A stretch of 64,000 nucleotides of DNA from an uncultured Ignavibacteria bacterium (GTDB lineage: Bacteria > Zixibacteria > MSB-5A5 > CAIYYT01): contig CAZKIH010000001.1 of NCBI GenBank assembly GCA_964552775.1, positions 195,287 to 259,286 on the forward strand. Reading direction: 5' to 3'. This document shows positions 2,526 to 58,730 of the stretch, one piece after another (the first letter of the stretch is position 1; each line of letters opens with the position of its first letter). The translations under genes were made by a program, and so were the position numbers. The notes below the pieces were generated by a model. The model saw only the letters and a program-made list of their open reading frames with translations. It did not search any database and was not told the origin of the DNA.

Positions 2526-4643
2526 TTAGCACGGCGCCGCACCACCGGCAAAGATGTAGTTAACTAAGTAGACTACGTCCGAAATGTTGACTATCCCATT
2601 GCAGTTGGCGTCTCCGGAAGCCAAAGGAAACGGAGCGGGACCCTCTGCCACAATATACTGGAGTACAAATACAGCATCTGAGATATTGACCAAGCCACTG
2701 CCATTGGCGTCGCCTCTGACATAAGGTCTGGTCGCAATATCGAAGCAGACTGCCGGTGCCGAGGGGTCAATTTCGCTGTTGTTGGCGATGCCGAAATATG
2801 AAGGGGGAAATGCGCCGGCGCCGTAATCGAAAAACCAGTGGTAGGCTGGCGGAAAAAAGATGTTGTCGACGCAGAAACCGGAAGTCGTCGGCGTCGCGCC
2901 CTGTAGGCGGAATTTAACGCTGTAGCACTTGGCGTGAGAAGGATGAGATGGCAGATTGTATGCGGCGGCATTGGAAGCACCGCCAAGATAGAGGGTGTCC
3001 GGCAAATGACTAGTCTGAGGACGGATTCCAATGCCGGGGAGATTGAAGCGGTCGACTGCATCACCTTCTTCTTTGACCAAGCCAGCCCATTCACCGGTCT
3101 CTGGTGCAGTACCATAACCTGTAATCCACTGGATGGGGAATGATGTGGCCAACTCAAATCCAAGGGCAAGAACCCAAATCGGATCACCATTAGCAATCCA
3201 GACTTCAAGGATGTTGTCTTCACCAGTCCAGACCACGTTGTCGCCTCGATTCAACACGATCCTGACATCGCCTTGGCTGGAGGCGGAGTAGTCACAGACA
3301 TCGCCGATTCCGTCGAAATCGGCATCCTCTTGACCGGTGTTAGGGACGATCAAGCAATTATCAAGGAGATCACAGACTAAGTCTCCATCTCGATCTGTAT
3401 GATGCGCGCACTCTGCACAACCACCGCCCGGCAAATTAGTGCAAGCATCACAGGCATTGCCCGTTCCATCGCCATCGGTGTCACTCTGGTTTGCGTTGCT
3501 GACGATTGGACAGTTGTCGACGACACGAGTGTTCGCTGCGTATCCGGGATCACCAAAACCGTCGCCATCAGTATCTGTGCAGGGATCGCAGGCATCACCA
3601 ATACCGTCACTGTCGCTGTCGGTCTGCCCAGAGTTGGCGATGGACGGACAGTTGTCGGTCCCACATTCGTTCTCGGGATGTCCGGGATCTCCAAACCCGT
3701 CTCCATCGGAGTCGAAGCAGATCCCGCTGCAGGCAATCACACCTGCACCGATCAAAGTAGCACACGCGTTATTACTTGGGGCACACGGAGAGACGTTTTT
3801 GATCGGGTAAGTTGGATACGCTGTCGGGCAGAACCTAGGATCAAATGAGAAATTGCCTGGAGTTGATACGAGGGAAGCGAATGCGCCAACCCAGTCTCCC
3901 GATTGATTGCCGTAAATGTCCGTGCAAGTGATGTCAAATTCAGCGGGGCTGACGCCAGAATATGAGATAGAAGCTCCTGGCGCATTGAAGGCAATGATGC
4001 AGTTGCTGATGTCGACCGGTGACCCGGACGACAGCAAACCTCCCCCCTGGTTGTAAACGATCGTGCAATTTATGAGTCTGGGAGTACTGGGGAGATTTCT
4101 TTCATACTGATAGACGCCTCCTCCTGCACCGCTAAGGCTTCGGTTGTTTGCAATCACGCAGTTCCGAATCGTCGGGTTAGCATTGTCATCGCAGCTTATG
4201 CCCCCACCTTCATTCGAAGATGTATTGTTGATCAAGCGGCAGTTCTGAATGAGCGGAGAGGCTTGGTTCACGGCAATGCCTCCTCCTTCTGTCCATACAT
4301 AGCCATTCGTGATCGTAAAGCCGTCCAGCCTCGACGTCGTGTCCTCACCGGCAACGAACAGGATGCCCCGATGATTATCTCCTGAAGTCCCTTGACAGTC
4401 AATAATAGTAACGTCTGGCCCGCCCGCTGACTTGACAGTTATGGCCTTGCCGCTGAAGTCGACATCGCGATTACCGGCGCCTGTATATGTTCCCGCCGCA
4501 ACCAGCACCGTGTCGCCAGCGACAGCGGCATTGATGCCGGCCTGAATTGTCGGCTGATCCGTTGGAACGTTAATAGTTGAACCTACACTTACGCCCCACC
4601 AACACCCAATAATCATCATAGTGAGACAGATTACCCTACGCAC
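2526..4643 (-). CDS. secreted right-handed beta-helix protein with thrombospondin type-3-like Ca-binding repeats and a C-terminal dockerin-like pair
   Basis: Signal peptide, then repeated NxxSxxGGGI/GGGL parallel beta-helix motifs. Multiple DSDGDGFGDPG / DTDGDGTGNACD aspartate-rich TSP3-like repeats follow. The C-terminus is CGDANGSGLVNISDAVFVLQYIVAEGPAP...GDANCNGIVNISDVVYLVNYIFAGGAAPC. Confidence 0.8.
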   Translation of the reverse strand: MRRVICLTMMIIGCWWGVSVGSTINVPTDQPTIQAGINAAVAGDTVLVAAGTYTGAGNRDVDFSGKAITVKSAGGPDVTIIDCQGTSGDNHRGILFVAGEDTTSRLDGFTITNGYVWTEGGGIAVNQASPLIQNCRLINNTSSNEGGGISCDDNANPTIRNCVIANNRSLSGAGGGVYQYERNLPSTPRLINCTIVYNQGGGLLSSGSPVDISNCIIAFNAPGASISYSGVSPAEFDITCTDIYGNQSGDWVGAFASLVSTPGNFSFDPRFCPTAYPTYPIKNVSPCAPSNNACATLIGAGVIACSGICFDSDGDGFGDPGHPENECGTDNCPSIANSGQTDSDSDGIGDACDPCTDTDGDGFGDPGYAANTRVVDNCPIVSNANQSDTDGDGTGNACDACTNLPGGGCAECAHHTDRDGDLVCDLLDNCLIVPNTGQEDADFDGIGDVCDYSASSQGDVRIVLNRGDNVVWTGEDNILEVWIANGDPIWVLALGFELATSFPIQWITGYGTAPETGEWAGLVKEEGDAVDRFNLPGIGIRPQTSHLPDTLYLGGASNAAAYNLPSHPSHAKCYSVKFRLQGATPTTSGFCVDNIFFPPAYHWFFDYGAGAFPPSYFGIANNSEIDPSAPAVCFDIATRPYVRGDANGSGLVNISDAVFVLQYIVAEGPAPFPLASGDANCNGIVNISDVVYLVNYIFAGGAAPC

Positions 4644-11888: not shown

Positions 11889-12080
11889 TGATGACGAAGA
11901 CGTCGCTGTTTCGTGCAGGAATCAAATCGTACCTGGGTGCGAACTGAGCTCGAGGCCGTGAACTTGTGATCGGATTTGTGTCAATTCAAGTTGCCAAAAC
12001 AGCGAGTATTTTGTATTCTTTAGACATAACTACATATCAATTGGGCCGAACGGTTGTCAGCCGGTCTAATGGAGTTGATC

Positions 12081-13532
12081 ATGCGAATCAGTAAGCACTT
12101 GTTGATTCCGGTGTTGCTCACCGTGGCAATGATTGGACCCAGATTAGACGCGCAAGACCCTGGAATAGCCGACACACTGAGACTTGGAACCGATAGCTGC
12201 AGCGTCAAGTCCACGAATCCGTCGGCCACAGTGCCGGTGTTCTTGTTCAATGACGAAGGCGTTTCCTCTGTTACTCTCCCGCTTCTGATCAATGGCTTTT
12301 CCGGCTGGGCGACTCTCGATTCAATTTCCTACAGCGGTAGCCGCCTGGAGGACCCAGCAATACTTGACACTCGACAATTTCAACTTGTCGTAAACGACAC
12401 GATTGCGGTGGCAAAGTGGTTAATTACGTTCACAACCGGAGGCGGAACGAATCTGCCTGCAGGCGGCGGTAAACTGTGCGAACTATGGTTTCGACCGCGA
12501 TTCGGTGGGACTGTCGTTTTGGATACGTGCGATATTGCAGTATTGATCTTGGCTGATGAGACAGCAAATGTGTTCGCTCCGCAGTTCGAGTCAGGAGAAA
12601 TTGAGATTGCCTGCGATTACTTAGCTGGTGATACCGATTACGGCTCCGGGATAAACTCCCTAGACGTCCTCCGCATCCACAAATGCCTTCTTGGGCACTT
12701 TTGGGGAGCTGCTGGGTGGTTGCAGTCATTCGACCTGAATTGCGACCGTCGGATGGATTTGAGAGATGTCAATGACCTGGTTGAGTACGTATTCTATGCC
12801 GGACCTCCACCCTGCGCATGTGGCGGCTATTCTCCAGGTATCTACAATGACCCTGGATTGCGCGATACACTGTCCTTCAATTCCGACACTCTCTATGTCG
12901 GGATATCGAAATACGTCGATTTTAATCTTTTCAATGATGAGATAATTCAGGGTTTCAGCTTTGCGTGGGAATGGGACGGTACTGCCAGCGTAACTCCTCC
13001 AACGAGAAAAAGCGAGTATTCGGCTCTACCGAGAATCAATCCCGAATATAGATATACCCTTACCAACTATATGGGCCTCGCGCCACCTGGCACAGATCCC
13101 GGTGGATTCACGTTGAGCAGTTGGACTTTTGAGATAGACACACTCATTACTCCCGGTTCAGGCCCGATTTTCACCCTGCTCTTCACTCCTCTTGCTCCGG
13201 GCACGCTCACGTTCAGGTTGGTACATTATGAACCACCCGGTAACTCGGAGTCAATGCTTACCGGGATGGAGAATACTGCTATCGTGCCGGTCTTTGTTAG
13301 CGGAACGATCACAGTCTTGCCTTACTTGTGTGGTGACGCCGACAAGAACGGACTGGTGAATATCAGCGACGTTGTCTTCTTGATTAACTACATCTTCTCC
13401 GGTGGCGCCGCGCCGAATCCGATAGCAGCTGGCGACGCCAATTGCAGTGGCATCATCAATATCTCTGACGCAGTTTACTTAATCAACTATGTCTTTGGCG
13501 GCGGTCCCGCGCCGTGCGCGGCATGTCCTTGA
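12081..13532 (+). CDS. secreted protein with internal and C-terminal dockerin-like Ca-binding pairs
   Basis: Signal peptide at MRISKHLLIPVLLTVAMIGP (ATG at 12081 preferred over 12054). An internal segment reads GDTDYGSGINSLDVLRIHKCLLG...LNCDRRMDLRDVNDLVEYVFYAG. The C-terminus is CGDADKNGLVNISDVVFLINYIFSGGAAP...GDANCSGIINISDAVYLINYVFGGGPAPCAACP. Confidence 0.7.
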   Translation: MRISKHLLIPVLLTVAMIGPRLDAQDPGIADTLRLGTDSCSVKSTNPSATVPVFLFNDEGVSSVTLPLLINGFSGWATLDSISYSGSRLEDPAILDTRQFQLVVNDTIAVAKWLITFTTGGGTNLPAGGGKLCELWFRPRFGGTVVLDTCDIAVLILADETANVFAPQFESGEIEIACDYLAGDTDYGSGINSLDVLRIHKCLLGHFWGAAGWLQSFDLNCDRRMDLRDVNDLVEYVFYAGPPPCACGGYSPGIYNDPGLRDTLSFNSDTLYVGISKYVDFNLFNDEIIQGFSFAWEWDGTASVTPPTRKSEYSALPRINPEYRYTLTNYMGLAPPGTDPGGFTLSSWTFEIDTLITPGSGPIFTLLFTPLAPGTLTFRLVHYEPPGNSESMLTGMENTAIVPVFVSGTITVLPYLCGDADKNGLVNISDVVFLINYIFSGGAAPNPIAAGDANCSGIINISDAVYLINYVFGGGPAPCAACP

Positions 13533-21823: not shown

Positions 21824-22204
21824 ATGGTTGTCCCGGAAGGCCTGAAGTATACAAAAGAACATGAATGGATCAAGGTAGAGGGTGGTGTTGCGACGATCGG
21901 CATTACCGATTTCGCACAGGGCGAACTTGGCGACATCGTCTTCGTGGAATTGCCCAAAATCGGGCAGACTCTCAAGCAGATGCAGGCATTTGGCACTATT
22001 GAGGCTGTCAAGGCGGTCAGTGAACTCTACGCTCCGGTGTCAGGAATTGTAAAAGAAATAAACAAGAACCTGGAAGCGGATTCTTCTGTTATTAACAAGG
22101 ACCCCTACGGCGCCGGGTGGATGATAAAGGTTGAGAATTTTCCCGCCGCAGAAATCAATGCTTTGCTTGACCCGTCTGCGTATAAGAAATTGTTAGAGGA
22201 TTAA
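21824..22204 (+). CDS. gcvH: glycine cleavage system H protein
   Basis: 126 aa with YTKEHEWIKVEGGVATIGITDFAQ and the lipoyl-lysine motif IEAVKAVSELYAPVSG. Confidence 0.9.
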   Translation: MVVPEGLKYTKEHEWIKVEGGVATIGITDFAQGELGDIVFVELPKIGQTLKQMQAFGTIEAVKAVSELYAPVSGIVKEINKNLEADSSVINKDPYGAGWMIKVENFPAAEINALLDPSAYKKLLED

Positions 22205-22205
22205 T

Positions 22206-23561
22206 ATGACCTATGTTCCCCATTCCGATGACGAGCGACAGGAATTGCTGCGATCGATCGGAGTTAGCCGGTTTGAGGAATTGTTGAAGGGCGTCCCGGG
22301 GTCAGTGAGACTTACGGGCAGGTTAAATCTTCCGCGCGCTCTTTCCGAGTTTGAGACTCTCAAGATCCTCGATTCTCTGGCTGCCCGCAACCAAATCGGC
22401 CCGGAATACTCGAACTTCATGGGCTGTGGTGCTTATGATCACTATATCCCATCTGTAGTGGGTCACTTGGTCGATCGTTCCGAGTTCAAAACCGCCTACA
22501 CTCCATACCAGGCAGAAGTTGCCCAGGGAACGCTGCAGGTGATTTACGAGTTCCAATCGTTGATTTGTCGACTGACCGGGTTGGAAGCGGCGAATGCGTC
22601 CCTCTATGACGGCGGTTCCGCAACAGCTGAGGCGGTATTGCTTGCATTGGGTGCGACCAAACGTCGCAAGATCGTTATATCCAAGCTTGTGCATCCGCAT
22701 TACGTGGACTGTGTGAGAATCTATCTCGGCGGGAAAGATTTTGAAGTCGTCATGGTAGATCATGACAAAGGCAATGTCGATCTGGACGATTTGGGCCGCA
22801 AGATTCCTGATGCTGCCTGCTTTGTCTTTCAGAATCCAAACTTCTACGGTTATATCGAGCCTACGGAACAACTGCCCCAGATTGTCAAGGATGCCGGCGC
22901 ATTGTTGATTGCGGTGACATCGCCAATTTCATTGGCATATTTGAAAGCGCCATCGGAGTATGATGCTGACATAGCGGTAGGAGAGGGACAGTCGCTCGGC
23001 AATAGTCTCATGTTTGGCGGACCGTATTTTGGCTATTTCGCCACCAAGAAGCAGTATTTGCGTCAGATGCCTGGCCGTTTGGCCGCAATGACGAAGGACC
23101 GCCATGGGAGGCGCGGCTATTGCCTGACGCTGCAGACGCGCGAGCAGCATATACGTCGCGACAAGGCGACTTCAAACATTTGCACGAACCAGGCGCTGTG
23201 CGCGCTGGCTGGCACGATCTATATGGCGACGATGGGCAAGGAGGGATTGAAGGAAGTAGCTCGCTTGTGTGTAAACAAGGCGCACTATCTCAAAGATGCG
23301 CTGAATTCAATTGACGGGGTGTCAATCGCGTTTGATCGACCGTTTTTCATGGAATTCCCGCTGCGTACACAAGAGCGCTCGCGAGACGTCTTTGATCAAC
23401 TGGTGCGAAAGAAGATTTTTGCGGGTGTACCCACTTCCCGATTTCTCTGGGACGAGGATTTCCTGATTGTCTGCGCCACGGAAACACGCACGAAGACTGA
23501 GATGGATAGCTACCGACACGCGCTAAAAGAGGTGATGGTGAAAGATGCCGTTCTGCCCTAA
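22206..23561 (+). CDS. gcvPA: glycine dehydrogenase (decarboxylating) subunit 1
   Basis: 451 aa, typical N-terminal half of split P-protein (YIPSVVGHL, YTPYQAEVAQGTLQ). Confidence 0.9.
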   Translation: MTYVPHSDDERQELLRSIGVSRFEELLKGVPGSVRLTGRLNLPRALSEFETLKILDSLAARNQIGPEYSNFMGCGAYDHYIPSVVGHLVDRSEFKTAYTPYQAEVAQGTLQVIYEFQSLICRLTGLEAANASLYDGGSATAEAVLLALGATKRRKIVISKLVHPHYVDCVRIYLGGKDFEVVMVDHDKGNVDLDDLGRKIPDAACFVFQNPNFYGYIEPTEQLPQIVKDAGALLIAVTSPISLAYLKAPSEYDADIAVGEGQSLGNSLMFGGPYFGYFATKKQYLRQMPGRLAAMTKDRHGRRGYCLTLQTREQHIRRDKATSNICTNQALCALAGTIYMATMGKEGLKEVARLCVNKAHYLKDALNSIDGVSIAFDRPFFMEFPLRTQERSRDVFDQLVRKKIFAGVPTSRFLWDEDFLIVCATETRTKTEMDSYRHALKEVMVKDAVLP

Positions 23562-23919
23562 TTGTGAAACGGAATATAAAGGACACGTTTCGGTGTGTCC
23601 CGAGTGCGGTGAGCATTTGATCGAGATGACCGAAGATGAAGAACTGGAAGAAGAATTCGACGAGGAGGAAGGCGAGCAGATACTGCTTTACCGCTCCCCA
23701 AGCCCGGAATTGACCGATGAGCTGACCGATGCCTTGCGCGACGCGGGAATCACCTTTGATTTTCGCCCCGTCGAAAGCAAGGGCCGCACGGGCAGCGTTA
23801 AGTCGATGTACCGGGGGCAAAACATTGACGGCGAATTTTATGTAGGTGAAGATGATTACGATGCGGCCAAGGAAATTGCCGAATCAATCATCGGCGATAT
23901 TGAGGAAGATATCGCTTAG
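23545..23919 (+). CDS. small acidic protein with N-terminal zinc-ribbon (CPNC...CPEC) and DUF2007-like domain
   Basis: 124 aa; overlaps the end of gcvPA by 17 nt. Confidence 0.55.
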   Translation: MPFCPNCETEYKGHVSVCPECGEHLIEMTEDEELEEEFDEEEGEQILLYRSPSPELTDELTDALRDAGITFDFRPVESKGRTGSVKSMYRGQNIDGEFYVGEDDYDAAKEIAESIIGDIEEDIA

Positions 23920-23962
23920 GCTGTAATCCACTGTAGTACTCTCCATCAACAGAGGGTTTTGT

Positions 23963-24391
23963 ATGGCAAAATCTAAAGGCAAGCGAACTGATGAAGAGCG
24001 CTTGAGCAAGGCGCCCAGAACGAAGAAGGGCAATTCTGAGCCACGCACCAGTCAAGAACAGCAGGAGATGGACGACTCCGATTCAATTCTGCTCTTGAAG
24101 ACGGACAACTATTTGCAGGCGCAATTCCTGATTGGCGCACTCGAGGAAGAGGAGATTCCGTTCGTTGCGAAACGATTGAGCTCTTCGGATCCAATGCGCG
24201 GAGCAATTACGCACGTCGCTTACGATGCTCCCGGCGCGGCCGAGATCTATGTTAGTGCTGAAGACTATGATCGTGCCAAGGACCTGTTGGAATCGCTCGA
24301 AGGCGATGGTATCGCAAATTTCGATGAGGACGAGGACGAAGAGGAAGATGAGGCGGAGGATTTCTTCAATGAAGACGATGACGAAAGGTAA
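23963..24391 (+). CDS. DUF2007-like protein with acidic C-terminal tail
   Basis: LLLKTDNYLQAQFLIGALEEEEIPF...YVSAEDYDRAKDLLESLEG, followed by an Asp/Glu-rich tail. Confidence 0.55.
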   Translation: MAKSKGKRTDEERLSKAPRTKKGNSEPRTSQEQQEMDDSDSILLLKTDNYLQAQFLIGALEEEEIPFVAKRLSSSDPMRGAITHVAYDAPGAAEIYVSAEDYDRAKDLLESLEGDGIANFDEDEDEEEDEAEDFFNEDDDER

Positions 24392-24394
24392 ACG

Positions 24395-25231
24395 ATGAAG
24401 GGTCTGATGTCCATAGCCATTGCGTTGCTGCTGTGTGCCCCGGCACTGGCAACGCAGAAAATCGGCGATCTGGTGTTCCAGACCGATTTTGATTCTCTGA
24501 TGCAGACTGCTCATGAGCAGAAGCAGCCTGTCCTGATCAAATTTTACACCGATTGGTGAAAGTGGTGCAAGGTGATGGCGGACTCAACTCTGCCGGATGC
24601 CTATGTTCAGAAGTTTCTGAAGAATTTTGCACTGGCTAAGATAAACGCTGAGGTTGATACGATTACTGCTGCCCGTTTCGGCGTGAGGAGTTATCCGACT
24701 ACACTGCTTCTGAACCTCAAGGGGCAGGAGATCGATCGCATGGTAGGATACTTTCCACCCGAGGACTTCGTCGCAAGCATCACCAGCGCCCTGGCGGGAA
24801 TCGGTACGCTCGATGACCTGTTACTTCAGGCCGCAAGCGCACCTGGAGTTGATATCTATTATGAGATCGGGCAGAAGTATCGATGGCGCGGCGACTATGA
24901 TCAAGCAGCATACTATTTCGGCAAGATCATGGCAATGGACCCGGCCAATGAGAAAGGCAAGTCAGCTGAATGCGCGTACAATCTCGCGCACATGAAGTAC
25001 AAACTCAAGGACTACATCGGAGCTGTCAGTCTGTGGAAAAGAATGATCGAGACGTACCCTACTGATCCTATCAGTGTCGACGCAGAGTTAATGGCGGCAT
25101 TTTCCCATCAGAAGGCCGGTGATTTCATGAATGCCAGGAGAGAATACAACGCCTTTTTGCAAAAGTATCCTGATACAGAAGAAAAAGAGTGGATTGCAGA
25201 GCAATTCGCTGAGATGAACAAAAAGAAGTAG
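24395..25231 (+). CDS. periplasmic thioredoxin-like (DsbD-gamma/TlpA-like) + TPR protein with in-frame TGA at 24557..24559; putative selenoprotein with a UxxC redox motif
   Basis: ATG at 24395 and signal peptide MKGLMSIAIALLLCAPALA. The sequence reads ...VLIKFYTDW-TGA-KWCKVM..., continuing in frame into the track ORF 24572..25231 (TPR-like C-terminus). The TGA replaces the first Cys of the thioredoxin CxxC motif. Confidence 0.6.
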
Positions 25232-25236
25232 GACTT

Positions 25237-26694
25237 ATGAACTATAACGATGGCGCGACAATCTTTGAGACATCGAGACCGGGGCAGAAGGGATACACAC
25301 TTCCTGTGTGTGACGTTCCCGAACTGTCGCTGGAGGCGACTCTGGGCAAGGCGAACATGCGTTCGCATGATGCTGCTCTGCCTGAGGTTGCGGAGAACCA
25401 AGTCGTGCGACATTACATTCGCTTGTCAACTTTGAACCATCATATCGACAAGGCAATCTATCCGCTCGGTAGCTGTACCATGAAGTACAACCCAAAGGTT
25501 AACGAGAAAGCGGTCTCGAATCCGGGCTGGACACAGCTGCATCCGTTCCAGCCTGCGCGCACGGCCCAAGGCTCTCTGGAATTGATGTACAACTTAGGTC
25601 GTATGCTGGCCGAGATTTCGGGGATGCATGAGGTCTGCCTTCAGCCGACGTCCGGAGCTCAGGGTGAGTTCTGCGGCATACAGCTCGCAAAGGCCTATTT
25701 CAAGCACAAAGGTGAAAATCGCCACAAAGTGCTCCTCCCTGACTCCGCTCACGGTACTAATCCGGCCTCCGTGATGATGTCCGGTTGGCAACCGTTGGAA
25801 CTCAAGTCGAGCGAGGACGGTATTCTCGATCCGCAGACGCTGGAAGCTGCGCTTGACGATGAAGTGTCCATGATCATGCTTACCAACCCGAACACCGTTG
25901 GGTTGTTTGAGCGAGAGATTCTCCGGGTTGCCGAGCTGGCGCATGCCAAGGGTGCGCTGGTCTATATGGACGGTGCGAATCTGAATGCTCTCATGGGTAT
26001 AGTGCGTCCCGGCGATATGGGATTCGACATGTTGCACATCAATCTGCACAAGACATTTAGCACCCCGCACGGCGGCGGTGGACCGGGTGGTGGCGCGGTT
26101 GGAGTAAAGGACTTCCTATCACCGTATCTTCCGATTCCGGTCGTCAGCCGTGATGAAAAGCAGTACTACTTCGATTACGATCGGCCATTGACGATCGGCC
26201 GAATGCACTCATTCTATGGGAATTTCGGATCGATGGTCCGTGCCTATACGTACATTTTGATGAACGGCGCGGAAGGGCTGCGCAACATCTCGGAAACGGC
26301 AATCATCAATGCAAATTATCTCCTGAAGCTGTTACGTCCCAAATATAAAGTAGCCTACGATCACGTTTGTCAGCATGAGTTTGTCTTGTCAGGAGACTAC
26401 CAGAAGAAACTGGGAGTCAAGGTGACCGATATCGCCAAGCGAATGCTTGACTACGGAGTGCATGCACCGACAACTTACTTTCCGCTCATTGTCAGTGAGG
26501 CGCTGATGATCGAGCCGACAGAGACCGAGAGCAAAGAATCACTTGACTACCTTGCCAACGTAATGCTCAAGATCGCGGAAGAGATTGAAACCAATCCCGA
26601 AATCGTTAAGAACGCACCGCACACGACGCCGGTATCGCGTCTGGACGAGGTCGGGGCAGCAAGAGAACTCAATATCTGCTTCCCAATGGCATAA
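25237..26694 (+). CDS. gcvPB: glycine dehydrogenase (decarboxylating) subunit 2
   Basis: 485 aa with a PLP-dependent fold; HINLHKTFSTPHGGGGPG contains the PLP lysine region. Confidence 0.9.
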   Translation: MNYNDGATIFETSRPGQKGYTLPVCDVPELSLEATLGKANMRSHDAALPEVAENQVVRHYIRLSTLNHHIDKAIYPLGSCTMKYNPKVNEKAVSNPGWTQLHPFQPARTAQGSLELMYNLGRMLAEISGMHEVCLQPTSGAQGEFCGIQLAKAYFKHKGENRHKVLLPDSAHGTNPASVMMSGWQPLELKSSEDGILDPQTLEAALDDEVSMIMLTNPNTVGLFEREILRVAELAHAKGALVYMDGANLNALMGIVRPGDMGFDMLHINLHKTFSTPHGGGGPGGGAVGVKDFLSPYLPIPVVSRDEKQYYFDYDRPLTIGRMHSFYGNFGSMVRAYTYILMNGAEGLRNISETAIINANYLLKLLRPKYKVAYDHVCQHEFVLSGDYQKKLGVKVTDIAKRMLDYGVHAPTTYFPLIVSEALMIEPTETESKESLDYLANVMLKIAEEIETNPEIVKNAPHTTPVSRLDEVGAARELNICFPMA

Positions 26695-32573: not shown

Positions 32574-32984
32574 ATGATATCGAAAACCGGAATACATGCG
32601 CTTGCGGCCGTAACTCGAATAGCAGCACTGCAGAACGGTGAGTTTGCAGGGGCTGCAGATATCGCGAAGGAGATTGGGGCTCCTCAGAATTACTTGGGCA
32701 AGCTCCTTAAAATACTTGCCGGTAACGGTTTACTTGTCTCGCAAAAGGGATTTAATGGTGGGTTCCGTCTTGCGCGGGCAGCCGACGAAATCTCATTGTT
32801 TGACGTTATTGAGCCAATCGACAAGGTCAGCCGATGGGGGAATTGCTTTATGAGTTCAGGAAGTTGTTCAGAGGTCGAGCCTTGTGCGGTACATGGGAAG
32901 TGGAAACAGATCAGAGAGGAATACCTCGGGTTTCTGCACGATACGAGTGTCGCAGACATAGTAAACAGAAAGGTAACTCTTTGA
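32574..32984 (+). CDS. nsrR: Rrf2 family transcriptional regulator, NsrR/IscR-like with Fe-S cluster cysteines
   Basis: N-terminal wHTH (ADIAKEIGAPQNYLGKLLKILAGNGLLVSQKGFNGGFRLA) and a three-Cys cluster-binding segment CFMSSGSCSEVEPC. Confidence 0.8.
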   Translation: MISKTGIHALAAVTRIAALQNGEFAGAADIAKEIGAPQNYLGKLLKILAGNGLLVSQKGFNGGFRLARAADEISLFDVIEPIDKVSRWGNCFMSSGSCSEVEPCAVHGKWKQIREEYLGFLHDTSVADIVNRKVTL

Positions 32985-33080
32985 TTCTTTTTGTTTTACA
33001 TATAATCAGATATTCGGATGTGATTTAGGGATTTTTAATAATCTGTACTGTCTGACTTTCAATTTCCCTGGGAGGGAGTT

Positions 33081-33719
33081 ATGAGGCCCACACAAGTCTT
33101 AAGTAGTGAACACCGGGTCATCGAGGTGGTTCTGGATTGCCTTGATCAACTATTGGTTCGCACGACCATGACTGACAAACTCGACAAGGATGCCGCTGAG
33201 CAGTTTGTCGATTTCATCAGAACGTTTGCGGACGGATGCCATCATGGCAAAGAAGAGAAGCACTTATTCGTCGCGCTTGAACAAAAGGGCGCATCGCGCG
33301 AAACCGGCCCGGTAGCGGTGATGCTTCACGAACATGAGCTTGGCCGCAGTTACGTACGGCAAATGGCAGAGAACATCGAAGGAGCATCCATTGGTGATAA
33401 AACGTCCCTGCATCTTTTCCAGGTAGCCGCGCATGGCTACGTCGACCTTCTAAGAGCACACATAATGAAGGAAGATCAGATACTCTTCCCCCTCGCCGAT
33501 CAGCTGTTTTCTGACAGCGACTATGCAGAAATGACAGCGCAGTTCGAGCATGTTGAATCGCATCATATGGGTGAAGGCACACATCAGAAATACCTGGATA
33601 TCGCGAGCGCTCTCGCGAGCAAGTTTGGTGTCAAGGCGGACGTCCTGAACGGCACTGGTTCGTGCGGTTGTGGGCATGGAATGAAGTCCGAAACGACGAT
33701 TGAAAGGCGTGCGGTTTAA
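33081..33719 (+). CDS. hemerythrin-like di-iron protein (RIC/NorA-type, nitrosative-stress associated)
   Basis: HHE cation-binding motifs (HHGKEEKHLF, MLHEHELGR, HIMKEDQILFP). Sits between the Rrf2 regulator and the NO reductase. Confidence 0.7.
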   Translation: MRPTQVLSSEHRVIEVVLDCLDQLLVRTTMTDKLDKDAAEQFVDFIRTFADGCHHGKEEKHLFVALEQKGASRETGPVAVMLHEHELGRSYVRQMAENIEGASIGDKTSLHLFQVAAHGYVDLLRAHIMKEDQILFPLADQLFSDSDYAEMTAQFEHVESHHMGEGTHQKYLDIASALASKFGVKADVLNGTGSCGCGHGMKSETTIERRAV

Positions 33720-33746
33720 TCAACTGCACGATGGAGGAGAGTTGAT

Positions 33747-36014
33747 ATGAGAAAACTGTGGATGGCCTTCTCGGTGGTGGTGCTTCTGTCGTTTGCAGTG
33801 CTGGGGTGGGCAGGATTCAAAATCTACCAGGAAAAACCGCCATTACCCGATCGCGTTGTCAGCAGCGACGGGACGGTGGTAATCGACAAAGGCGTTGTTA
33901 TGGAGGGGCAGAATGTCTGGCGAGCCATGGGTGGAATGGAGATCGGCTCGATCTGGGGGCATGGTAGTTATGTCGCCCCTGACTGGACAGCCGATTGGCT
34001 TCACAGAGAGGCGATCTTCATTCTCAATGACTGGTCGGCCAATGACTTCAACTCAAGTTTCGATAAGCTCAATGTCGAACAGCAGGCTTCTTTGCAGGCA
34101 CGACTCAAGAAGCTGATGCGCACGAATACCTACGATATTACGACCAACACGATTACTATCGACCTGGTGAGAGCACGAGCATTTGAGGCTAATGTTGCGC
34201 ACTATAGCGGCGTGTTTTCTGAGGGGAACAGTCAATATGCAATCCCGAAGGGTACGGTGACGGACCCTGCCAGACTGCGACAAATGTCGGCGTTCTTCTT
34301 CTGGACTTCGTGGGCGGCATCAACAAACCGGCCTGACGACGTTATGTCTTACACCAGCAACTGGCCTCATGAACCCCTGGTTGACAATGTTCCTACTAGT
34401 GATGCGATCATCTGGACGGGATTCAGCATCATCATGTTGTTGGCCGGAATCGGAATGATGGTGTGGTATCACGCATCACAGAAAAAGGAGCCAATCGCTG
34501 AGCGGCTTCCTGAACAAGATCCCCTCTTTTCGTTCAAGCCAACACCATCTCAGCTCGCGGTTGTGAAGTACTTCTGGGTAGTGGCGGCCCTGTTTCTTGT
34601 GCAAATGATCATGGGCGTCATATCGGCGCACTACGGTGTTGAGGGCGACGGATTCTATGGAATCCCACTTGCTAAGTGGTTGCCATACGTTATCACGCGT
34701 ACGTGGCACACACAACTGGGAATCTTCTGGATTGCCACAGCCTGGTTGGCTGCTGGGTTGTATATCGGACCCGCGGTGGCTGGCAAAGAACCTAAATACC
34801 AAAGGCTCGGTGTGAACATTTTGTTCGGAGCCCTGATTGTCGTTGTTGCCGGATCAATGGCCGGCGAGTGGTTTGGGGTTATGGGTAAAATGACCGGCGA
34901 CAATTGGTTCTATTTGGGACATCAGGGGTATGAGTACGTTGACCTTGGCCGAATCTGGCAAATCGGATTATTGATCGGCCTCTTTCTTTGGGTTTGGCTG
35001 GTCGGTCGCTGCATTGTCGAAGCGATGCGCAAGGGTGGCGACCAGAAACCGCTGATGACCATGTTCCTCATAGCCTCTGTGGCAATCGGAGCATTTTATG
35101 CGGCAGGACTGATGTGGGGCAAGACTACGCATCTTTCAATGGCAGAATATTGGCGCTGGTGGGTGATTCACCTCTGGGTCGAGGGCTTCTTTGAGGTCTT
35201 CGCAACCGTGGTAATTGCCTTCTTGTTTGCAAGGCTGCAGCTTATTCGACTGAAAACTGCCAACTCGAGTGTAATCTTTGCCACAACGATATTCCTAACC
35301 GGCGGCATTATCGGTACTTTGCATCACCTGTATTTCTCCGGAACACCTACGGTTGTGATGGCTCTGGGTGCGATATTTAGCGCACTGGAGGTCGTGCCGT
35401 TGACGATAATCGGGTTTGAAGCGTGGGATAATATTCGCCTTGCTCGAGCAACGCCTTGGGTGATGCGATATCGATGGCCGATCTACTTCTTTGTTGCCGT
35501 CGCGTTTTGGAATATGGTGGGGGCCGGCCTATTTGGATTTATGATCAATCCGCCAATCGCCTTGTATTATATGCAGGGACTGAACACGACACCGGTTCAC
35601 GGACACACCGCGTTATTTGGTGTCTATGGTATGCTGGGAATCGGGCTGATGCTCTTTTGTCTTCGAGTCCTTTATGTCCGCCGCGACTGGAAGGATAACG
35701 TCCTGAAGTTTGGCTTCTGGACAATCAACATTGGCCTCTTGGCGATGGTATTGCTTAGTCTGCTGCCCATCGGCTTCATGCAGACTTGGGCATCTGTTGA
35801 AACCGGGTACTGGTTTGCCCGATCAGCGGAGTTCCTGTATTCCCCGACAATTGAAGTACTTAAGTGGATGCGTGCCCCCGGGGATACGATTTTTGCCCTG
35901 GGAATCCTAACAATAGTGCTCTTCATATTTGGTCTAACAACGGGCCATTCTTTGAAGAAGGAGACTTTGGCAAAATCGACTTCGTCCCCTCACAAGTCGG
36001 AACCTCTGAAATGA
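33747..36014 (+). CDS. norZ: quinol-dependent nitric oxide reductase (qNOR, NorZ/NorB large form)
   Basis: 755 aa. An N-terminal hydrophilic extension with one TM is followed by a 12-TM heme-copper-oxidase subunit-I-like core with conserved His ligands (HLYFSGTP, WVIHLWVEGFFE, HGHTALFGVYG). Confidence 0.9.
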   Translation: MRKLWMAFSVVVLLSFAVLGWAGFKIYQEKPPLPDRVVSSDGTVVIDKGVVMEGQNVWRAMGGMEIGSIWGHGSYVAPDWTADWLHREAIFILNDWSANDFNSSFDKLNVEQQASLQARLKKLMRTNTYDITTNTITIDLVRARAFEANVAHYSGVFSEGNSQYAIPKGTVTDPARLRQMSAFFFWTSWAASTNRPDDVMSYTSNWPHEPLVDNVPTSDAIIWTGFSIIMLLAGIGMMVWYHASQKKEPIAERLPEQDPLFSFKPTPSQLAVVKYFWVVAALFLVQMIMGVISAHYGVEGDGFYGIPLAKWLPYVITRTWHTQLGIFWIATAWLAAGLYIGPAVAGKEPKYQRLGVNILFGALIVVVAGSMAGEWFGVMGKMTGDNWFYLGHQGYEYVDLGRIWQIGLLIGLFLWVWLVGRCIVEAMRKGGDQKPLMTMFLIASVAIGAFYAAGLMWGKTTHLSMAEYWRWWVIHLWVEGFFEVFATVVIAFLFARLQLIRLKTANSSVIFATTIFLTGGIIGTLHHLYFSGTPTVVMALGAIFSALEVVPLTIIGFEAWDNIRLARATPWVMRYRWPIYFFVAVAFWNMVGAGLFGFMINPPIALYYMQGLNTTPVHGHTALFGVYGMLGIGLMLFCLRVLYVRRDWKDNVLKFGFWTINIGLLAMVLLSLLPIGFMQTWASVETGYWFARSAEFLYSPTIEVLKWMRAPGDTIFALGILTIVLFIFGLTTGHSLKKETLAKSTSSPHKSEPLK

Positions 36015-47465: not shown

Positions 47466-50400
47466 TTAATCGTTTCCATCCGGATGACAATTCAGGCATG
47501 CCGCACTCTGCCAAGAATAGCCATTCTCGTCCTGGTGTTTGTCATCCATCGTTGCCTGACTGTGCTCATGGCAGAAAATACACTCGAAAACAGCATAGTT
47601 GGACGTGTTGACATGGCAATCATTGCAATTATCCCATGCTTCTCGATGCTTGCCCGAGTAGATCGGAAAGTACTGCGTGTCATGATTCCAATTAGCCGGA
47701 GTCCATGCCGTTGTTGAGTGACAGGTCTGGCAATCGGTCGGGAAGTTCGCTGCAGCATGACTTGGCGCAGTAGTGCCACTGTAGGCATCTTGATGGCACG
47801 AGAAACACAACGTCGGTGTAGCGACGTATCCACCAGAATGGCAGGCGATGCACATCAATCCGACATGCGCGCCCGTTAACGGGAAGTTGGTCGTACTATG
47901 GTTAAATGATGCCGGCTCCCAGGCAGTGGTCGTGTGGCATTCAGTACATTGGTGCGAGAATCCATTCGTCACATGATTGGGATCGGTCACGGCTGCAAAA
48001 TCGCCTTGGTGGCAGCTATAACAGTCTGCTGGTGTATTGGTGTATCCCGCAGAGTGACAAGCGACACACTGCAGCCCGGTGTGACCGCCGGTGAGAGCGA
48101 AGCCCGTAGTGCTATGATTAAACGTCGACGGAGTCCAGACGGAAGTCGTGTGACAGGTCACGCAATTGTGATCAAAATTGTTAGCAACGTGATTCGGATC
48201 GGCAACGCCTGCAAAGTCTCCTTGGTGGCATGAATAACAAGCCGTTGACGTATTGGTATATCCTGACGAATGACAAGCGAGACATTGCAGTCCGGAATGT
48301 CCACCCGTAAGTGGGAATTGTGTCAGGCTGTGATCAAATGTCGCTGGCGTCCAAGCCGTGGTCCCGTGACAATTGGTGCAGAGTTGATCAAAATTGTTCG
48401 TCACATGATTAGGGTCAGACACCGCTGTGAAGTCGCCGGAGTGACATCCAAAACAAGTCTGGCTCGTGCCCGCATACGTTTGCGAATGACAAGAAATGCA
48501 CTGGAGCGAAGTATGTGCTCCCACTAACACAAATCCCGTGGTAGTGTGGTCCCAGTTGGTCGACTCCCAGTTCAAAGTGCCGTGACAAGTGGCACAGTTG
48601 TTGTCGAATCCGGCACTTGTATGATTCGGATTTGTGGCTTCAGTTACATCTGCTTGATGACATGATATGCAGGTGTTCGGGGTGTTTGTGTAGCCCGAAG
48701 TATGACAGCTTACGCAGGTCGCAGTTGAATGGGCTCCAGTTAACGTAAATCCAGTCTGGCTGTGATCAAAATTGCTCGGTTCCCAGGCTGTTGTGGAGTG
48801 ACAAGTGCTGCAGTCGTGGTCAAAGTTATTCTGCACATGATTGGGATTAGACGTTGAAGTGAAGTCACCGCTATGACAGTCAAAACAGAGGTTTGGCGTA
48901 TTCGTATAGCCGGTTGCATGGCATGAGATACAAGCCAGCGACGTGTGCGCCCCGGTTAACGCGAATCCTGTTGAGCTGTGGTTGAAATTGCTCGGTTCCC
49001 ATGCTGTTGTCGAGTGGCAAGTGCCGCAGTTATGGTCAAAGTTGTTCTGCACATGATTGGGGTCAGTCGTCCCCGCAAAGTCACCGCTATGGCAGTCGAA
49101 ACAGAGGTTCGGCGTATTCGTATAGCCGGTTGCATGACACGATATACACGCCAACGAAGTGTGGGCGCCGGTTAAATTGAACCCAGTTTGACTATGGTCA
49201 AAATCAGCAGGTTCCCACGCCGTTGTCGAGTGGCAAGTGCCGCAATTATGGTCAAAGTTGTTCTGCACATGATTGGGGTCAGTCGTCCCCGCAAAGTCAC
49301 CGCTATGACAGTCAAAACAAAGCGTCGGCGTATTCGTGTAACCCGTCGAATGGCATGAAATGCAGTTCGCCGATGTGTGCGCTCCAGTTAACACGAATCC
49401 GGTAGCAGAGTGGTCAAAAGATGACGGTTCCCACGCCGTTGTCGAGTGACAACTCGTACAGTCGTGATCAAAGTTGTTTTGCTCATGGTCAGGATCGGTC
49501 GTTCCCGCAAAGTCACCGCTATGACAGTCAAAACAAAGCGTCGGCGTATTCGTGTAACCCGTCGAATGGCATGAAATGCAGTTCGCCGATGTGTGCGCTC
49601 CAGTTAACACGAATCCGGTAGCAGAGTGGTCAAAAGATGACGGTTCCCACGCCGTTGTCGAGTGACAACTCGTACAGTCGTGATCAAAGTTGTTTTGCTC
49701 ATGGTCAGGATCAGTCGTTCCCGCAAAATCACCGCTATGACAGTCAAAACAAAGCGTCGGCGTATTGGTGTAACCCGTCGAATGGCATGAAATGCAGTTC
49801 GCCGATGTGTGGGCTCCAGTTAATACGAATCCGGTGGCAGAGTGGTCAAAAGATGACGGCTCCCACGCCATTGTCGAGTGACAACTCGTACAGTTGTGAT
49901 CAAAGTTGTTTGTCACGTGATTCGGATCGGTAGCTGATGCAAAGGCTTCGCTGTGACAGTCGAAGCATTGAGTGGCCGTCCCAACATAGCCCCCGCTATG
50001 GCAAGAGATACAAGCTAAGGTCTGATGTGCACCAGTCAGGGCAAACTGCGTCTGATTGTGATCGAACGTCGCCGGCGTCCAGGCAGAATTGGAGTGACAG
50101 GAAAGGCAGTTGTGATCAAAGTTCCCGCCTTCGTGGTCCGGATCATTCGCTTGAGCGAAGTCGCCTGAATGACAGGAAAAGCACTGTGGTGAGGTGTTCG
50201 CGTATCCACCCGAGTGACACGACTGGCAATCAAGTCCGACGTGTCCGCCTTCGAGGGGAAACCCCGTGAGTGCATGATCGTAACCGCGCGGATCAACTGG
50301 CAGCCATCCTGCGGTCGTATGACAGCCGGCACAATCATGGCCCAGTCCATTCGTTACATGGTTCGGATCAGTTGCGGCGGCAAATGCCATTTGATGGCAT

Positions 50401-51743
50401 GAATAACAGTCGTTGGCTGTATTAGCATATCCAGCACTGTGGCACGATTGACATTCCAGCTCCAAATGTGCTCCATTGATAGCAAATCCAGTCTGATCGT
50501 GATCAAATTCCGCCGGCTCCCAGGCGGTTGTGGTATGGCATTGCTGGCAGTCATGACTGAAATTCGCGGCCTCGTGGTCGGGGCTATCGGTAGCGGCAAA
50601 TCCGCTACTGTGGCACGAAAAGCAGTCTGAAGCAGTGTTGGTGTACCCTTCGCCGTGGCAATTCTGACATGCTAAAGCCGTGTGCGCGCCGGTCAGGGCG
50701 AAACTCGTCGCACTGTGATCGAAGTCCGCTGGCTCCCACGCGTTCATATTGTGGCAAGTCGTGCAGTCATGATCAAAATTGCCGGCCGTGTGGTCCGGCT
50801 CGTCTGCGTCGGCAAAGGCGGAGCTATGACAACTGAAGCAGTCAGTAGCTGTGTTCGTGTAGGAACTGCTGTGGCAATCCTGGCACTCAACCTTGGTGTG
50901 CGCACCTTCAAGCGCAAAACTAGTCACATTATGATCAAAGGTCGCCGGTGTCCAGGCCGTCATCGTATGACAAGTTGAGCAGTCCTGTGAGAAGTTTGCA
51001 GCTTCGTGGTCTGGATCTGGTGCTTCAAGGTAATCGGCGTTGTGGCAAGAATAACAGTCAGTCGGCGTTCCGGCAAATTGGGTAGCGTGACAAGAGGCGC
51101 AGTCAAGGCCCTGATGTCCACCTTCAAGGATCGGAGTAGGTGGATGGTCGAATTTCGCCCCTTCCCACGTGACCGCCGACGAGCGATGACACTGTACGCA
51201 ATCGCTGTCGAATCCCGCCAATACATGATTGGGATCAGTGGTTGTGTTGAAGTCGCTTTCGTGACAAAACTGACAATCAGCAGGAGTGCCGGCATATTGT
51301 TCGCTCAGTTGTCCCTTATGACATGACTGGCAATCCACAATCGCGTGAGTACCTGCCAGCGGAAAACCGCGTGAAGCGTGAACTTCAAAAACTTCCTGTT
51401 CGTTCTGCCACCCGCGAGTTGTATGGCAATTCTGACAGGTTGAACCTAACTGACCATTGTGTTGATCGGCATGGCAATCGGCGCAATTATCAGGGGTTTT
51501 CGCAAACGTAAGGTCATTGTGACAAGCGATACACTTAATCTGTTTATGTTTACCGGATAAAGGAAATCCTGTTTCGTCGTGGCGAAACTTGGTTTCTGTC
51601 GGAATCTCTTTCCAGTTCCCGGTCGAGTGGCAGGTCGCACAATCGAACTTGATGTCGCCGTGGGGATTATCACCCTGGGCGATGGCAAGAATTGTGAGGC
51701 CGGCTGCGAAAGCAGTTGTCAGGCAGACTCTTACAAGAGTCAT
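47466..51743 (-). CDS. giant multiheme c-type cytochrome (about 58 CxxCH motifs; tandem c7-like triheme domains)
   Basis: Signal peptide; 1425 aa; about 58 CxxCH counted by eye. The repeating unit is ~72 aa with 3 CxxCH and conserved His (..FDH..TGAH..C.SCHS.GY.NT...CF.CHSGDFAG.TDP(N/D)H..NNFDH.C..CHST.AW.P), resembling polymerised cytochrome c7 (PpcA-like) domains. Confidence 0.9.
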   Translation of the reverse strand: MTLVRVCLTTAFAAGLTILAIAQGDNPHGDIKFDCATCHSTGNWKEIPTETKFRHDETGFPLSGKHKQIKCIACHNDLTFAKTPDNCADCHADQHNGQLGSTCQNCHTTRGWQNEQEVFEVHASRGFPLAGTHAIVDCQSCHKGQLSEQYAGTPADCQFCHESDFNTTTDPNHVLAGFDSDCVQCHRSSAVTWEGAKFDHPPTPILEGGHQGLDCASCHATQFAGTPTDCYSCHNADYLEAPDPDHEAANFSQDCSTCHTMTAWTPATFDHNVTSFALEGAHTKVECQDCHSSSYTNTATDCFSCHSSAFADADEPDHTAGNFDHDCTTCHNMNAWEPADFDHSATSFALTGAHTALACQNCHGEGYTNTASDCFSCHSSGFAATDSPDHEAANFSHDCQQCHTTTAWEPAEFDHDQTGFAINGAHLELECQSCHSAGYANTANDCYSCHQMAFAAATDPNHVTNGLGHDCAGCHTTAGWLPVDPRGYDHALTGFPLEGGHVGLDCQSCHSGGYANTSPQCFSCHSGDFAQANDPDHEGGNFDHNCLSCHSNSAWTPATFDHNQTQFALTGAHQTLACISCHSGGYVGTATQCFDCHSEAFASATDPNHVTNNFDHNCTSCHSTMAWEPSSFDHSATGFVLTGAHTSANCISCHSTGYTNTPTLCFDCHSGDFAGTTDPDHEQNNFDHDCTSCHSTTAWEPSSFDHSATGFVLTGAHTSANCISCHSTGYTNTPTLCFDCHSGDFAGTTDPDHEQNNFDHDCTSCHSTTAWEPSSFDHSATGFVLTGAHTSANCISCHSTGYTNTPTLCFDCHSGDFAGTTDPNHVQNNFDHNCGTCHSTTAWEPADFDHSQTGFNLTGAHTSLACISCHATGYTNTPNLCFDCHSGDFAGTTDPNHVQNNFDHNCGTCHSTTAWEPSNFNHSSTGFALTGAHTSLACISCHATGYTNTPNLCFDCHSGDFTSTSNPNHVQNNFDHDCSTCHSTTAWEPSNFDHSQTGFTLTGAHSTATCVSCHTSGYTNTPNTCISCHQADVTEATNPNHTSAGFDNNCATCHGTLNWESTNWDHTTTGFVLVGAHTSLQCISCHSQTYAGTSQTCFGCHSGDFTAVSDPNHVTNNFDQLCTNCHGTTAWTPATFDHSLTQFPLTGGHSGLQCLACHSSGYTNTSTACYSCHQGDFAGVADPNHVANNFDHNCVTCHTTSVWTPSTFNHSTTGFALTGGHTGLQCVACHSAGYTNTPADCYSCHQGDFAAVTDPNHVTNGFSHQCTECHTTTAWEPASFNHSTTNFPLTGAHVGLMCIACHSGGYVATPTLCFSCHQDAYSGTTAPSHAAANFPTDCQTCHSTTAWTPANWNHDTQYFPIYSGKHREAWDNCNDCHVNTSNYAVFECIFCHEHSQATMDDKHQDENGYSWQSAACLNCHPDGND
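49190..49840. repeat. three near-identical tandem 216-bp repeats inside the giant cytochrome gene (more diverged copies span roughly 48100..51000)
   Basis: Plus-strand shadow ORFs at 49223, 49421 and 49637 give nearly identical translations with a 216-nt offset. The minus-strand protein repeats TAWEPSSFDHSATGFVLTGAHTSANCISCHSTGYTNTPTLCFDCHSGDFAGTTDPDHEQNNFDHDCTSCHST three times identically. Confidence 0.75.
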
Positions 51744-51760
51744 CTTGACACCATCCAGAA

Positions 51761-54755: not shown

Positions 54756-55445
54756 TCAGTCTATCGCTCTGAGCCGGTAGCCGATTCCTGGCTCGGTCGC
54801 GATTAGGTCTTCTCGCAATGATTTGGAATTCAACTTCTTCCTCAACTGCCCGAAGTAAACCCGCAAGTATTGGCGTTGCTCGACAGCAGGAGGGCCCCAG
54901 ACTTCTCGCAGTATCTGTGTGTGCGTAACGACTCTGCCCACATGACGAGCAAGCAGCCGTAACAAATTATACTCAGTTGCAGTTAGATGCACGATGTTGT
55001 CGTCAACCGACACGATCCGTCCCACAAAGTCAATCTTGAGTGGCCCGGAGACAAAGACTGCCGATTCCTCCCCGGGGTGCGCGTGACGGAGAGCAACTCG
55101 TACTCGCGCGAGCAATTCAACAGCACTGAACGGCTTGGTCAGATAGTCATCAGCCCCCGCATCGAGAACCTTGACCTTGTCGGCGTCTGTATCCCTGACT
55201 GTGAGAACGATGATTGGCACTGTCGACCACTCGCGTATTCGACGGATGAAGTCATCGCCGCTCATGTCCGGCAGGCCGAGATCGAGAATGATAACTTCGG
55301 GCTTGAATGAAATTGCCTCGCGAAGACCATCGTTTGCCGTCGCGGCATCGCCGACTTGATAGCCATCGGTCTCCAGGCAGACTCTCAGAAGCTTGCGAAT
55401 TGCCGATTCATCATCAATGACCAAGACTCTCGTCGACTTGTTCAC
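54756..55445 (-). CDS. kdpE: two-component response regulator KdpE (OmpR family)
   Basis: REC domain (VLVIDDESAIRKLL...IILDLGLPDMSG) plus a winged-helix C-terminus. Overlaps kdpD by 4 nt. Confidence 0.85.
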   Translation of the reverse strand: MNKSTRVLVIDDESAIRKLLRVCLETDGYQVGDAATANDGLREAISFKPEVIILDLGLPDMSGDDFIRRIREWSTVPIIVLTVRDTDADKVKVLDAGADDYLTKPFSAVELLARVRVALRHAHPGEESAVFVSGPLKIDFVGRIVSVDDNIVHLTATEYNLLRLLARHVGRVVTHTQILREVWGPPAVEQRQYLRVYFGQLRKKLNSKSLREDLIATEPGIGYRLRAID

Positions 55446-58707: not shown

Positions 58708-58730
58708 TGAAGTTCCAGTCTCCCGACGAG

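Follow-up and report, generated by a model that had tools for sequence, protein, structure and literature searches.

The DNA analyzed here (the window) is a stretch of 64,000 nucleotides (nts) from contig CAZKIH010000001.1 of an uncultured bacterium, and all positions are counted from its first letter. We found that positions 24395-25231 on the plus strand very probably form one gene for an exported selenoprotein, in which a thioredoxin fold (Trx) is followed by tetratricopeptide repeats (TPR) and the UGA at 24557 is read as selenocysteine (Sec). This TGA lies in a thioredoxin-like active site and is almost certainly a Sec codon there.

A TGA codon within a complete Trx-TPR gene

The complete gene consists of 278 codons and a terminal TAG, and its frame is interrupted only once, by the TGA triplet at 24557-24559. 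It is opened by the ATG at 24395, which is located 3 nts past the TAA of the upstream gene and is preceded, at a distance of 6 nts, by a Shine-Dalgarno-like GAAAGG (24383-24388, plus strand, by direct reading of the sequence) within the end of that gene, which codes for a DUF2007 protein. The translated protein starts with MKGLMSIAIALLLCAPALATQ, later reads ...PVLIKFYTDW-TGA-KWCKVMADS... and continues for 223 sense codons to the TAG at 25229-25231. The TGA (plus strand) is proposed to encode Sec55 (U55) at the N-terminal, nucleophilic position of a W-U-K-W-C redox motif, where full-length homologs have the invariant first Cys of their FYTDWCxWC motif, and the TGC at 24566-24568 (plus strand) encodes Cys58, the resolving residue of this UxxC motif. 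An earlier reading of these letters made without database searches (the sequence-only reading) had proposed this ATG with its ribosome-binding context and signal peptide, and an in-frame TGA at 24557 in place of the first Cys of a thioredoxin motif; translation confirmed the coordinates and the frame, and the homologs carry FYTDWCxWC exactly at that site.

Among the 42 other open reading frames (ORFs) in the window, 11 end with TGA (17 with TAA and 14 with TAG). TGA is therefore a normal stop codon in this organism and its genetic code is not reassigned, in agreement with the sequence-only reading. No second convincing gene with an in-frame TGA was seen in the window, the mechanically generated list of such candidates being mostly noise. 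The public annotation splits the gene into an ORF of 54 amino acids (aa) at 24395-24559 and an ORF of 218 aa at 24575-25231, and in the source genome the two fragments are separate protein records on the same NCBI contig of 323,733 bp.

TGA and Cys at the same codon in related genomes

Homologs were searched for among 5.8 billion proteins, and the DNA of the relatives' loci was then retrieved. The search returned full-length homologs of 264-320 aa with the motif FYTDWCxWC as well as approximately 30 clusters of shorter proteins (217-219 aa, identity 58-100%), each of which starts with MADSTLPD, that is, with the first Met after the TGA. These short database proteins begin past the TGA because the aligned first-Cys codon in their DNA is itself TGA. 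Seventeen species-representative genomes (L003-L018 and L025) have TGA here, and a scan of metagenomes added a further 39 TGA loci and 19 Cys loci. Together with L019-L024, L026-L030 and L032-L034, the latter bring the number of loci with Cys at the TGA position to more than 30. Eight genomes besides the 17 have TGT or TGC as this codon, and the motif is CPWC, CSWC, CPWS or CPYS. Upstream of the TGA, the 17 genomes keep in frame the signal peptide and the first elements of the thioredoxin fold (a strand and a helix), and over the 54 codons 5' of the TGA the protein is conserved while synonymous sites vary. The repeated occurrence of TGA at this one codon is far beyond chance. The sequence-only reading had considered it unlikely that a stop codon had landed there by accident, and the recurrence of TGA behind a conserved upstream coding region in the 17 genomic and 39 metagenomic loci bears this out.

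Both the TGA and the Cys forms, including the close Cys orthologs L032, L033 and L034, are found in the gene order accC-gcvH-gcvPA-(zinc-ribbon ORF, DUF2007)-TrxTPR-gcvPB and are therefore orthologous. A neighbor-joining tree shows Sec and Cys forms interspersed, implying that the codon switched between Sec and Cys several times. The distant Cys forms L022-L024, L026 and L027 have CPWS or CPYS motifs, i.e., the second Cys is gone and they represent monothiol variants within the family. Such CxxS variants indicate that the first position of the motif is the indispensable one, which fits a replacement of the nucleophile by Sec.

These comparisons bear directly on whether the TGA could simply be a true stop codon, so that the locus would produce a secreted peptide of 54 aa and, from ATG 24575, a cytoplasmic TPR protein of 218 aa, or would be a decaying pseudogene. 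Gene callers do annotate the locus in this way everywhere, and AAGGTG directly precedes ATG 24575; however, this AAGGTG is just 2 nts from the ATG, encodes K-V and is found in the Cys forms too. Moreover, two separate products would divide the thioredoxin fold at its active site, the larger of them having neither signal peptide nor nucleophile, whereas the Cys orthologs at the same locus are uninterrupted. In-frame conservation of both halves of the gene, seen in more than 50 loci with identities as low as approximately 30%, cannot be reconciled with a pseudogene. Termination at this codon is thus considered very improbable. A sequencing or assembly error that hides a TGC or TGT would require only one base change, but the identical TGA is present in two independently assembled Logan runs (L001 and L002; SRR14932662 and SRR14932695), in the 17 species-level genomes and in the 39 metagenome contigs, which come from unrelated projects. 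An error of this kind, which the sequence-only reading had wished to see excluded, can hardly be entertained.

Some features of individual relatives were also recorded. The TGA form L014 (1034-1597), on a contig of 2 kb, ends after 187 codons, and this may reflect a frameshift, a pseudogene or an assembly error. In L003, L006-L011 and others, the locus is 85-94% identical to that of the window and the proteins are assigned to Candidatus Zixiibacteriota by NCBI; the same records are titled 'uncultured Ignavibacteria bacterium' despite these protein names, and the titles may be mislabelled.

RNA structures downstream of the TGA codon

Among 13 orthologs of the window's subgroup, synonymous change is suppressed in a zone of about 23 codons immediately downstream of the TGA (codons 56-78; 24560-24628, plus strand). 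Of the 18 testable codons here, 8 are invariant, compared with 8 of 123 in the rest of the gene (Fisher p = 1e-4; Mann-Whitney p = 8e-6). Folding and the alignment of the 13 orthologs place a hairpin, H1, in this zone (24570-24602, plus strand), which we regard as the candidate core of a selenocysteine insertion sequence (SECIS). It consists of a lower stem of 5 bp (24570-24574/24598-24602), an internal loop, an upper stem of 5-7 bp (24577-24581/24590-24594) and an apical loop of 6-8 nts that starts 22-23 nts past the TGA, with a spacer of 10 nts between TGA and hairpin and a minimum free energy (MFE) of -13.3 kcal/mol. Over the 13 orthologs, 98% of cells are paired in H1 vs at most 55% in slid controls. 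Changes in its lower stem are one-sided, with a few two-sided ones: pair 29:55 occurs as UG (five times), UA (four), GU (two) and AU (one), and pair 30:54 as GU (eight), GC (three) and AU (two). The sequence-only reading had named a foldable stem-loop past the TGA as a check on its proposal, and the conserved hairpin indeed starts 11 nts past this codon.

A second hairpin, H2 (24606-24621, plus strand; UUCAGA-AGUU-UCUGAA), has 6 bp and a GU-containing tetraloop from 52 nts past the TGA. It is invariant in all 13 aligned orthologs and in 17 of 17 distinct Sec forms, whereas in six Cys forms the identical peptide VQKFLKNF is specified by other codons (GTG/GTA/GTC, AAA, TTC and CTC). In the Cys ortholog L032 (SRR21707687, 3163-3243), in which TGA has become TGC, H1 is kept and H2 is lost, together with the residues it encodes (VQLYLK vs VQKFLK). 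This recently converted gene suggests that H2 is required solely while the codon is UGA. The contrast between Sec and Cys forms at H2 is the best evidence that ties the RNA element to decoding of the UGA.

Hairpins of a canonical kind are present in three sister groups, and H1 shares its codon positions with them. One of these, a subgroup of soil bacteria (L055-L113, e.g., L076 1378-2346 and L066), is GC-rich and has the motif W-U-x-W-C-K-A-L-E-E-S-T-Y, a lipobox and an invariant canonical SECIS hairpin, AGGCUCU-GGA-AGAGUCU, whose loop lies 17 nts past the UGA and whose flanks are GGUGUA/UACACC. In the second group, the hairpin is GACAC-GGUC-GUGUU with the loop 23 nts past the UGA, and in the third it is GCGCU-UGGAU-AGCGY with the loop 16 nts past the UGA. 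According to the bacterial SECIS (bSECIS) model, such an element has an apical loop of 3-9 nts on a stem of 4-16 bp, a G in the first two loop positions, a UGA-to-loop distance of 16-37 nts and an MFE of -7.5 kcal/mol or lower (PMC13188914). The L076-type and L025-type hairpins agree with all four criteria of this model, and the L016-type hairpin agrees with the first three, its -7.3 kcal/mol missing the energy limit marginally. Like the SECIS of E. coli fdhF, the window's element is a hairpin inside the ORF that begins about 11 nts past the UGA, and the GGUC loop of the fdhF type recurs in the relatives L025, L071 and L083; unlike it, H1 of the window's subgroup has no conserved loop G and is followed by the second, invariant hairpin with an AGUU loop at +52 nts. 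H1 may be the SECIS by position, and H2 may be an accessory element or the actual SelB-binding element.

Other structures were tried and set aside. An alternative register of the lower stem of H1 (columns 23-29 with 54-60) pairs 57% of cells and fits only the L012-L014 subgroup, and a long-range pairing proposed by RNAalifold (columns 20-23 with 102-105) is supported by one-sided changes only. A single Rfam match, to a long noncoding RNA, was dismissed as chance.

Several results weigh against the interpretation of this gene as a selenoprotein gene. Neither hairpin of the window's subgroup agrees with all four criteria of the bSECIS model: H1 departs from it in having no G at loop positions 1-2, and H2 has the proper loop but lies 52 nts from the UGA and, taken alone, reaches no more than -4.4 to -5.1 kcal/mol. 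The region has modest folding z-scores (-1.3 to -1.7), covariation is limited in that most paired positions never vary, and Rfam gave no SECIS match, either at the gathering threshold for the whole window or at E values up to 10 for 24450-24750. With regard to the Sec machinery, ARAGORN found no tRNA-Sec in the window or in 32 loci, Pfam found no SelA, SelB or SelD among 40 window ORFs, and none of selA, selB, selD and tRNA-Sec was present in the window plus approximately 350 kb of orthologous flanks, to which the search was confined. Besides, selenium incorporation at U55 is predicted from the sequence, and the redox role, its direction, the electron donor, the substrate and the partner of the TPR domain are inferred by analogy with DsbD-gamma and CnoX.

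Part of this evidence could also speak for a read-through of the UGA without Sec, in which Cys would be inserted by a tRNA-Sec-like tRNA(Cys) together with SelB, or Trp, Cys or Gly would be inserted by near-cognate or suppressor decoding, the hairpins acting as read-through stimulators. Sequence cannot identify the amino acid that enters at a UGA, the window showed none of the Sec machinery, and H1 of its subgroup is without the loop G. On the other hand, the UGA always stands for the catalytic Cys of CxxC, which is the classical Sec/Cys pair, and the sister groups carry canonical hairpins of the SelB type (GGUC, GGA and UGGAU loops, 16-23 nts from the UGA). In addition, insertion of plain Cys gives no reason for keeping a costly UGA in dozens of lineages, or for repeated switches to TGC or TGT. 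We therefore consider such read-through improbable and retain decoding of the UGA as Sec as the preferred explanation.

Domain architecture and comparison with known proteins

A Sec-type (secretory) signal peptide is predicted from sequence features at residues 1-19, MKGLMSIAIALLLCAPALA (24395-24451, plus strand), with a basic residue, a hydrophobic core of 12 residues and cleavage after A-L-A (followed by TQ). The orthologs keep a hydrophobic N-terminus and an AxA site, and the more distant ones carry a lipobox (..GC), all of which points to export of the whole family. A lipoprotein reading of LLLC in the window's protein was rejected, as close orthologs are without that Cys and keep the AxA site.

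The thioredoxin-fold domain, which resembles DsbD-gamma, covers residues 29-133 approximately (24479-24793, plus strand; Pfam, model and Foldseek). With Cys substituted for the TGA, Pfam assigned Thioredoxin (PF00085) to residues 31-130 with 53 bits (cutoff 23.5; 3.8e-14) and PF13098 with 43.6 bits (cutoff 27), and PF13899 also matches this domain. The C-terminal domain, at residues 139-277 approximately (24809-25228, plus strand; Pfam and model), is all-helical, with eight helices, and Pfam matches of TPR type (TPR_2, TPR_6, TPR_14 and YfiO) extend across residues 153-262. The structure was examined in an AlphaFold (AF2) model of the Cys ortholog P0002, which is 68% identical to the window's protein. 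Apart from residues 1-20, for which the predicted local distance difference test (pLDDT) is low, the model is of high confidence (pLDDT 94; predicted template modeling score 0.87), and it consists of a signal segment that is disordered or helical, followed by a thioredoxin fold in which U/CxxC opens the helix at 56-63, and by TPR-type helices at 139-277. In the model, C/U-x-x-C lies at the N-terminus of helix 1 of the thioredoxin fold.

None of the selenoprotein-specific models of NCBIfam reached its cutoff, and the domain matches in this collection (DsbD, TsoB, BamD and YbgF) were all below threshold. Of the named selenoprotein families considered (TsoB, SaoT, HUIPC-motif Trx-like, Trx7/PDZ and others), only TsoB matched, at 49 vs 805 bits, and this sub-threshold match arises through the shared DsbD-like domain.

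The closest solved structures for the thioredoxin domain are those of DsbD-gamma from E. coli and Neisseria (PDB 2FWE, 1VRS, 1UC7 and 6DNU). Comparison of the P0002 model with 2FWE and 1VRS by Foldseek gave 27-30% identity, TMt of 0.72-0.79 and a root-mean-square deviation (rmsd) of 2.2-3.3, the best rmsd being 2.2. Thus, the likeness to DsbD-gamma and the TPR-like continuation, both of which the sequence-only reading had recognized, were recovered by structure and by the Pfam TPR families, respectively. Both DsbD-gamma and, by prediction, the window's domain have a periplasmic redox centre of the W-C-x-x-C type. However, DsbD-gamma is the last domain of a membrane protein of three domains (alpha, transmembrane beta and gamma), whereas the window's domain is free-standing, is fused to TPR and has Sec for the first Cys. 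An assignment to DsbD as a whole does not hold, since NF001419 scores 50.9 bits vs a cutoff of 330 and only its gamma domain aligns (464-571 of 574), and no membrane segment beyond the signal peptide was seen in the window's protein.

With regard to the whole chain, the sole matches of Foldseek in PDB are YbbN/CnoX of E. coli (3QOU) and Salmonella (3QDN), with E = 8e-7 over 267-284 aligned columns. As in the window's protein, an N-terminal thioredoxin fold is followed by a TPR domain in YbbN/CnoX; however, the identity is 14%, TM is 0.31, the rmsd is about 23 A and the domains are packed differently. YbbN/CnoX was not among the 60 best-scoring of 221 matches in a sequence search of PDB. CnoX is a cytoplasmic protein, and that of E. 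coli is without CxxC, whereas members of the window's family carry a UxxC/CxxC centre behind a signal peptide or lipobox. Several homologs have been named 'thioredoxin-like negative regulator of GroEL' by JGI.

UxxC proteins with a thioredoxin fold are the commonest kind of bacterial selenoprotein and have long been known. The window's protein resembles them in its Pfam families, in a UxxC motif with Sec at the nucleophilic N-terminal position, in the existence of Cys homologs and in a SECIS-type hairpin located within the coding region just past the UGA. It differs from them in having a signal peptide and a C-terminal TPR domain and, in the window's subgroup, two conserved hairpins instead of one canonical SECIS. 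The UxxC selenoprotein families listed in PMC13188914 include 'thioredoxin' as well as 'thiol:disulfide interchange protein'. Full-text searches and reviews yielded no account of selenoproteins from Zixibacteria or of any that combine Trx with TPR, and the exported Trx-TPR subfamily appears to be undescribed.

General concepts are unchanged by this family, but the prokaryotic selenoproteome gains an exported and widespread Trx-TPR subfamily, whose occurrence points to the use of Sec in Zixibacteria-type organisms as well as in a large group of bacteria from soil. It also corrects a systematic misannotation: all database entries of the Trx-TPR selenoprotein are truncated, approximately 30 public clusters representing the C-terminal part of 218 aa while the N-terminal part of 54 aa is filed separately. 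Furthermore, the repeated switches between Sec and Cys provide a natural experiment on the RNA signal, in which H2 decays once TGA becomes TGC.

Proposed mechanism

We propose that the UGA at 24557 would be decoded as Sec by the bacterial SelB/Sec-tRNA(Sec) pathway, which would be recruited by H1 (24570-24602), probably with the help of the invariant H2 (24606-24621). Judging from the sequence and the model, the precursor of 278 residues would then be exported and lose its signal peptide of 19 residues, giving a mature periplasmic protein whose DsbD-gamma/thioredoxin-like domain would carry the redox centre W-U55-K-W-C58. By analogy, this protein may be a periplasmic thiol-disulfide oxidoreductase, in which Sec55 would serve as an exposed nucleophile attacking a substrate disulfide or an oxidised thiol, Cys58 would resolve the intermediate as a selenenylsulfide, and a membrane electron donor of the DsbD/CcdA type would re-reduce the centre. 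The TPR domain would most likely bind a partner protein or a substrate, in keeping with the YbbN/CnoX architecture. A bolder proposal, which we regard as doubtful though worth stating, is that the Sec signal consists of two hairpins, with the AGUU loop of H2 being the SelB site at 52 nts, outside the range of 16-37 nts, and the folding of H1 bringing H2 to the ribosome, and that the product is a periplasmic, selenium-dependent counterpart of CnoX.

Genomic context

In the window, the Trx-TPR gene lies between the two genes for glycine dehydrogenase subunits, all on the plus strand. Upstream are gcvPA for subunit 1 (22206-23561; annotated as GDC-P at the identical locus, with conserved synteny), a small acidic zinc-ribbon ORF (23545-23919) and, directly before the Trx-TPR gene, the gene for an acidic DUF2007 protein (23963-24391). 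Downstream, gcvPB for subunit 2 (25237-26694, according to annotation and synteny) begins 5 nts past the stop codon of the selenoprotein gene. Co-transcription is likely in view of this tight packing, in which even the Shine-Dalgarno-like sequence lies inside the upstream gene.

The zinc-ribbon ORF encodes 124 aa and overlaps the end of gcvPA by 17 nts. A weak match of its N-terminal CPNC...CPEC ribbon is NF049953, 'zinc ribbon-containing (seleno)protein DG', with 27 bits vs a cutoff of 130; the remainder of the protein is highly acidic, and the ORF is without an in-frame TGA. The DUF2007 protein has a long poly-Asp/Glu tail at its C-terminus, and in close relatives its gene invariably lies just 5' of the Trx-TPR gene. 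In the window (21824-26694) and in L003-L027, three unrelated genes separate gcvPA from gcvPB, and every Zixibacteria-type locus retains the order accC-gcvH-gcvPA-x-TrxTPR-gcvPB, even where the identity of Trx-TPR is as low as 27%. In the soil subgroup, the neighbors are an LmbE/PIG-L-like deacetylase, a small zinc-ribbon protein and a YchF-like GTPase, and not gcv genes; a functional link of the Trx-TPR protein to the glycine-cleavage operon is therefore doubtful.

Several other regions of the window were also recorded. On the minus strand at 47466-53422, two adjacent genes encode multihaem cytochromes of 1425 and 553 aa with many cytochrome c7/c3 and MtrC-like domains, which suggests extracellular or periplasmic electron transfer as judged from their domains. 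At 32574-36014, genes for an Rrf2-family regulator, a hemerythrin-domain protein and a NorB-like quinol nitric-oxide reductase (755 aa) are located consecutively, and their predicted products make this region look like a nitric-oxide response cluster. A complete potassium uptake operon, kdpA-kdpB-kdpC-kdpD-kdpE, lies on the minus strand at 54756-62531. Finally, 2526-4643 and 12054-13532 encode secreted-looking proteins with terminal dockerin type I domains; in one of these proteins, a beta-helix and thrombospondin type 3 repeats are present as well.

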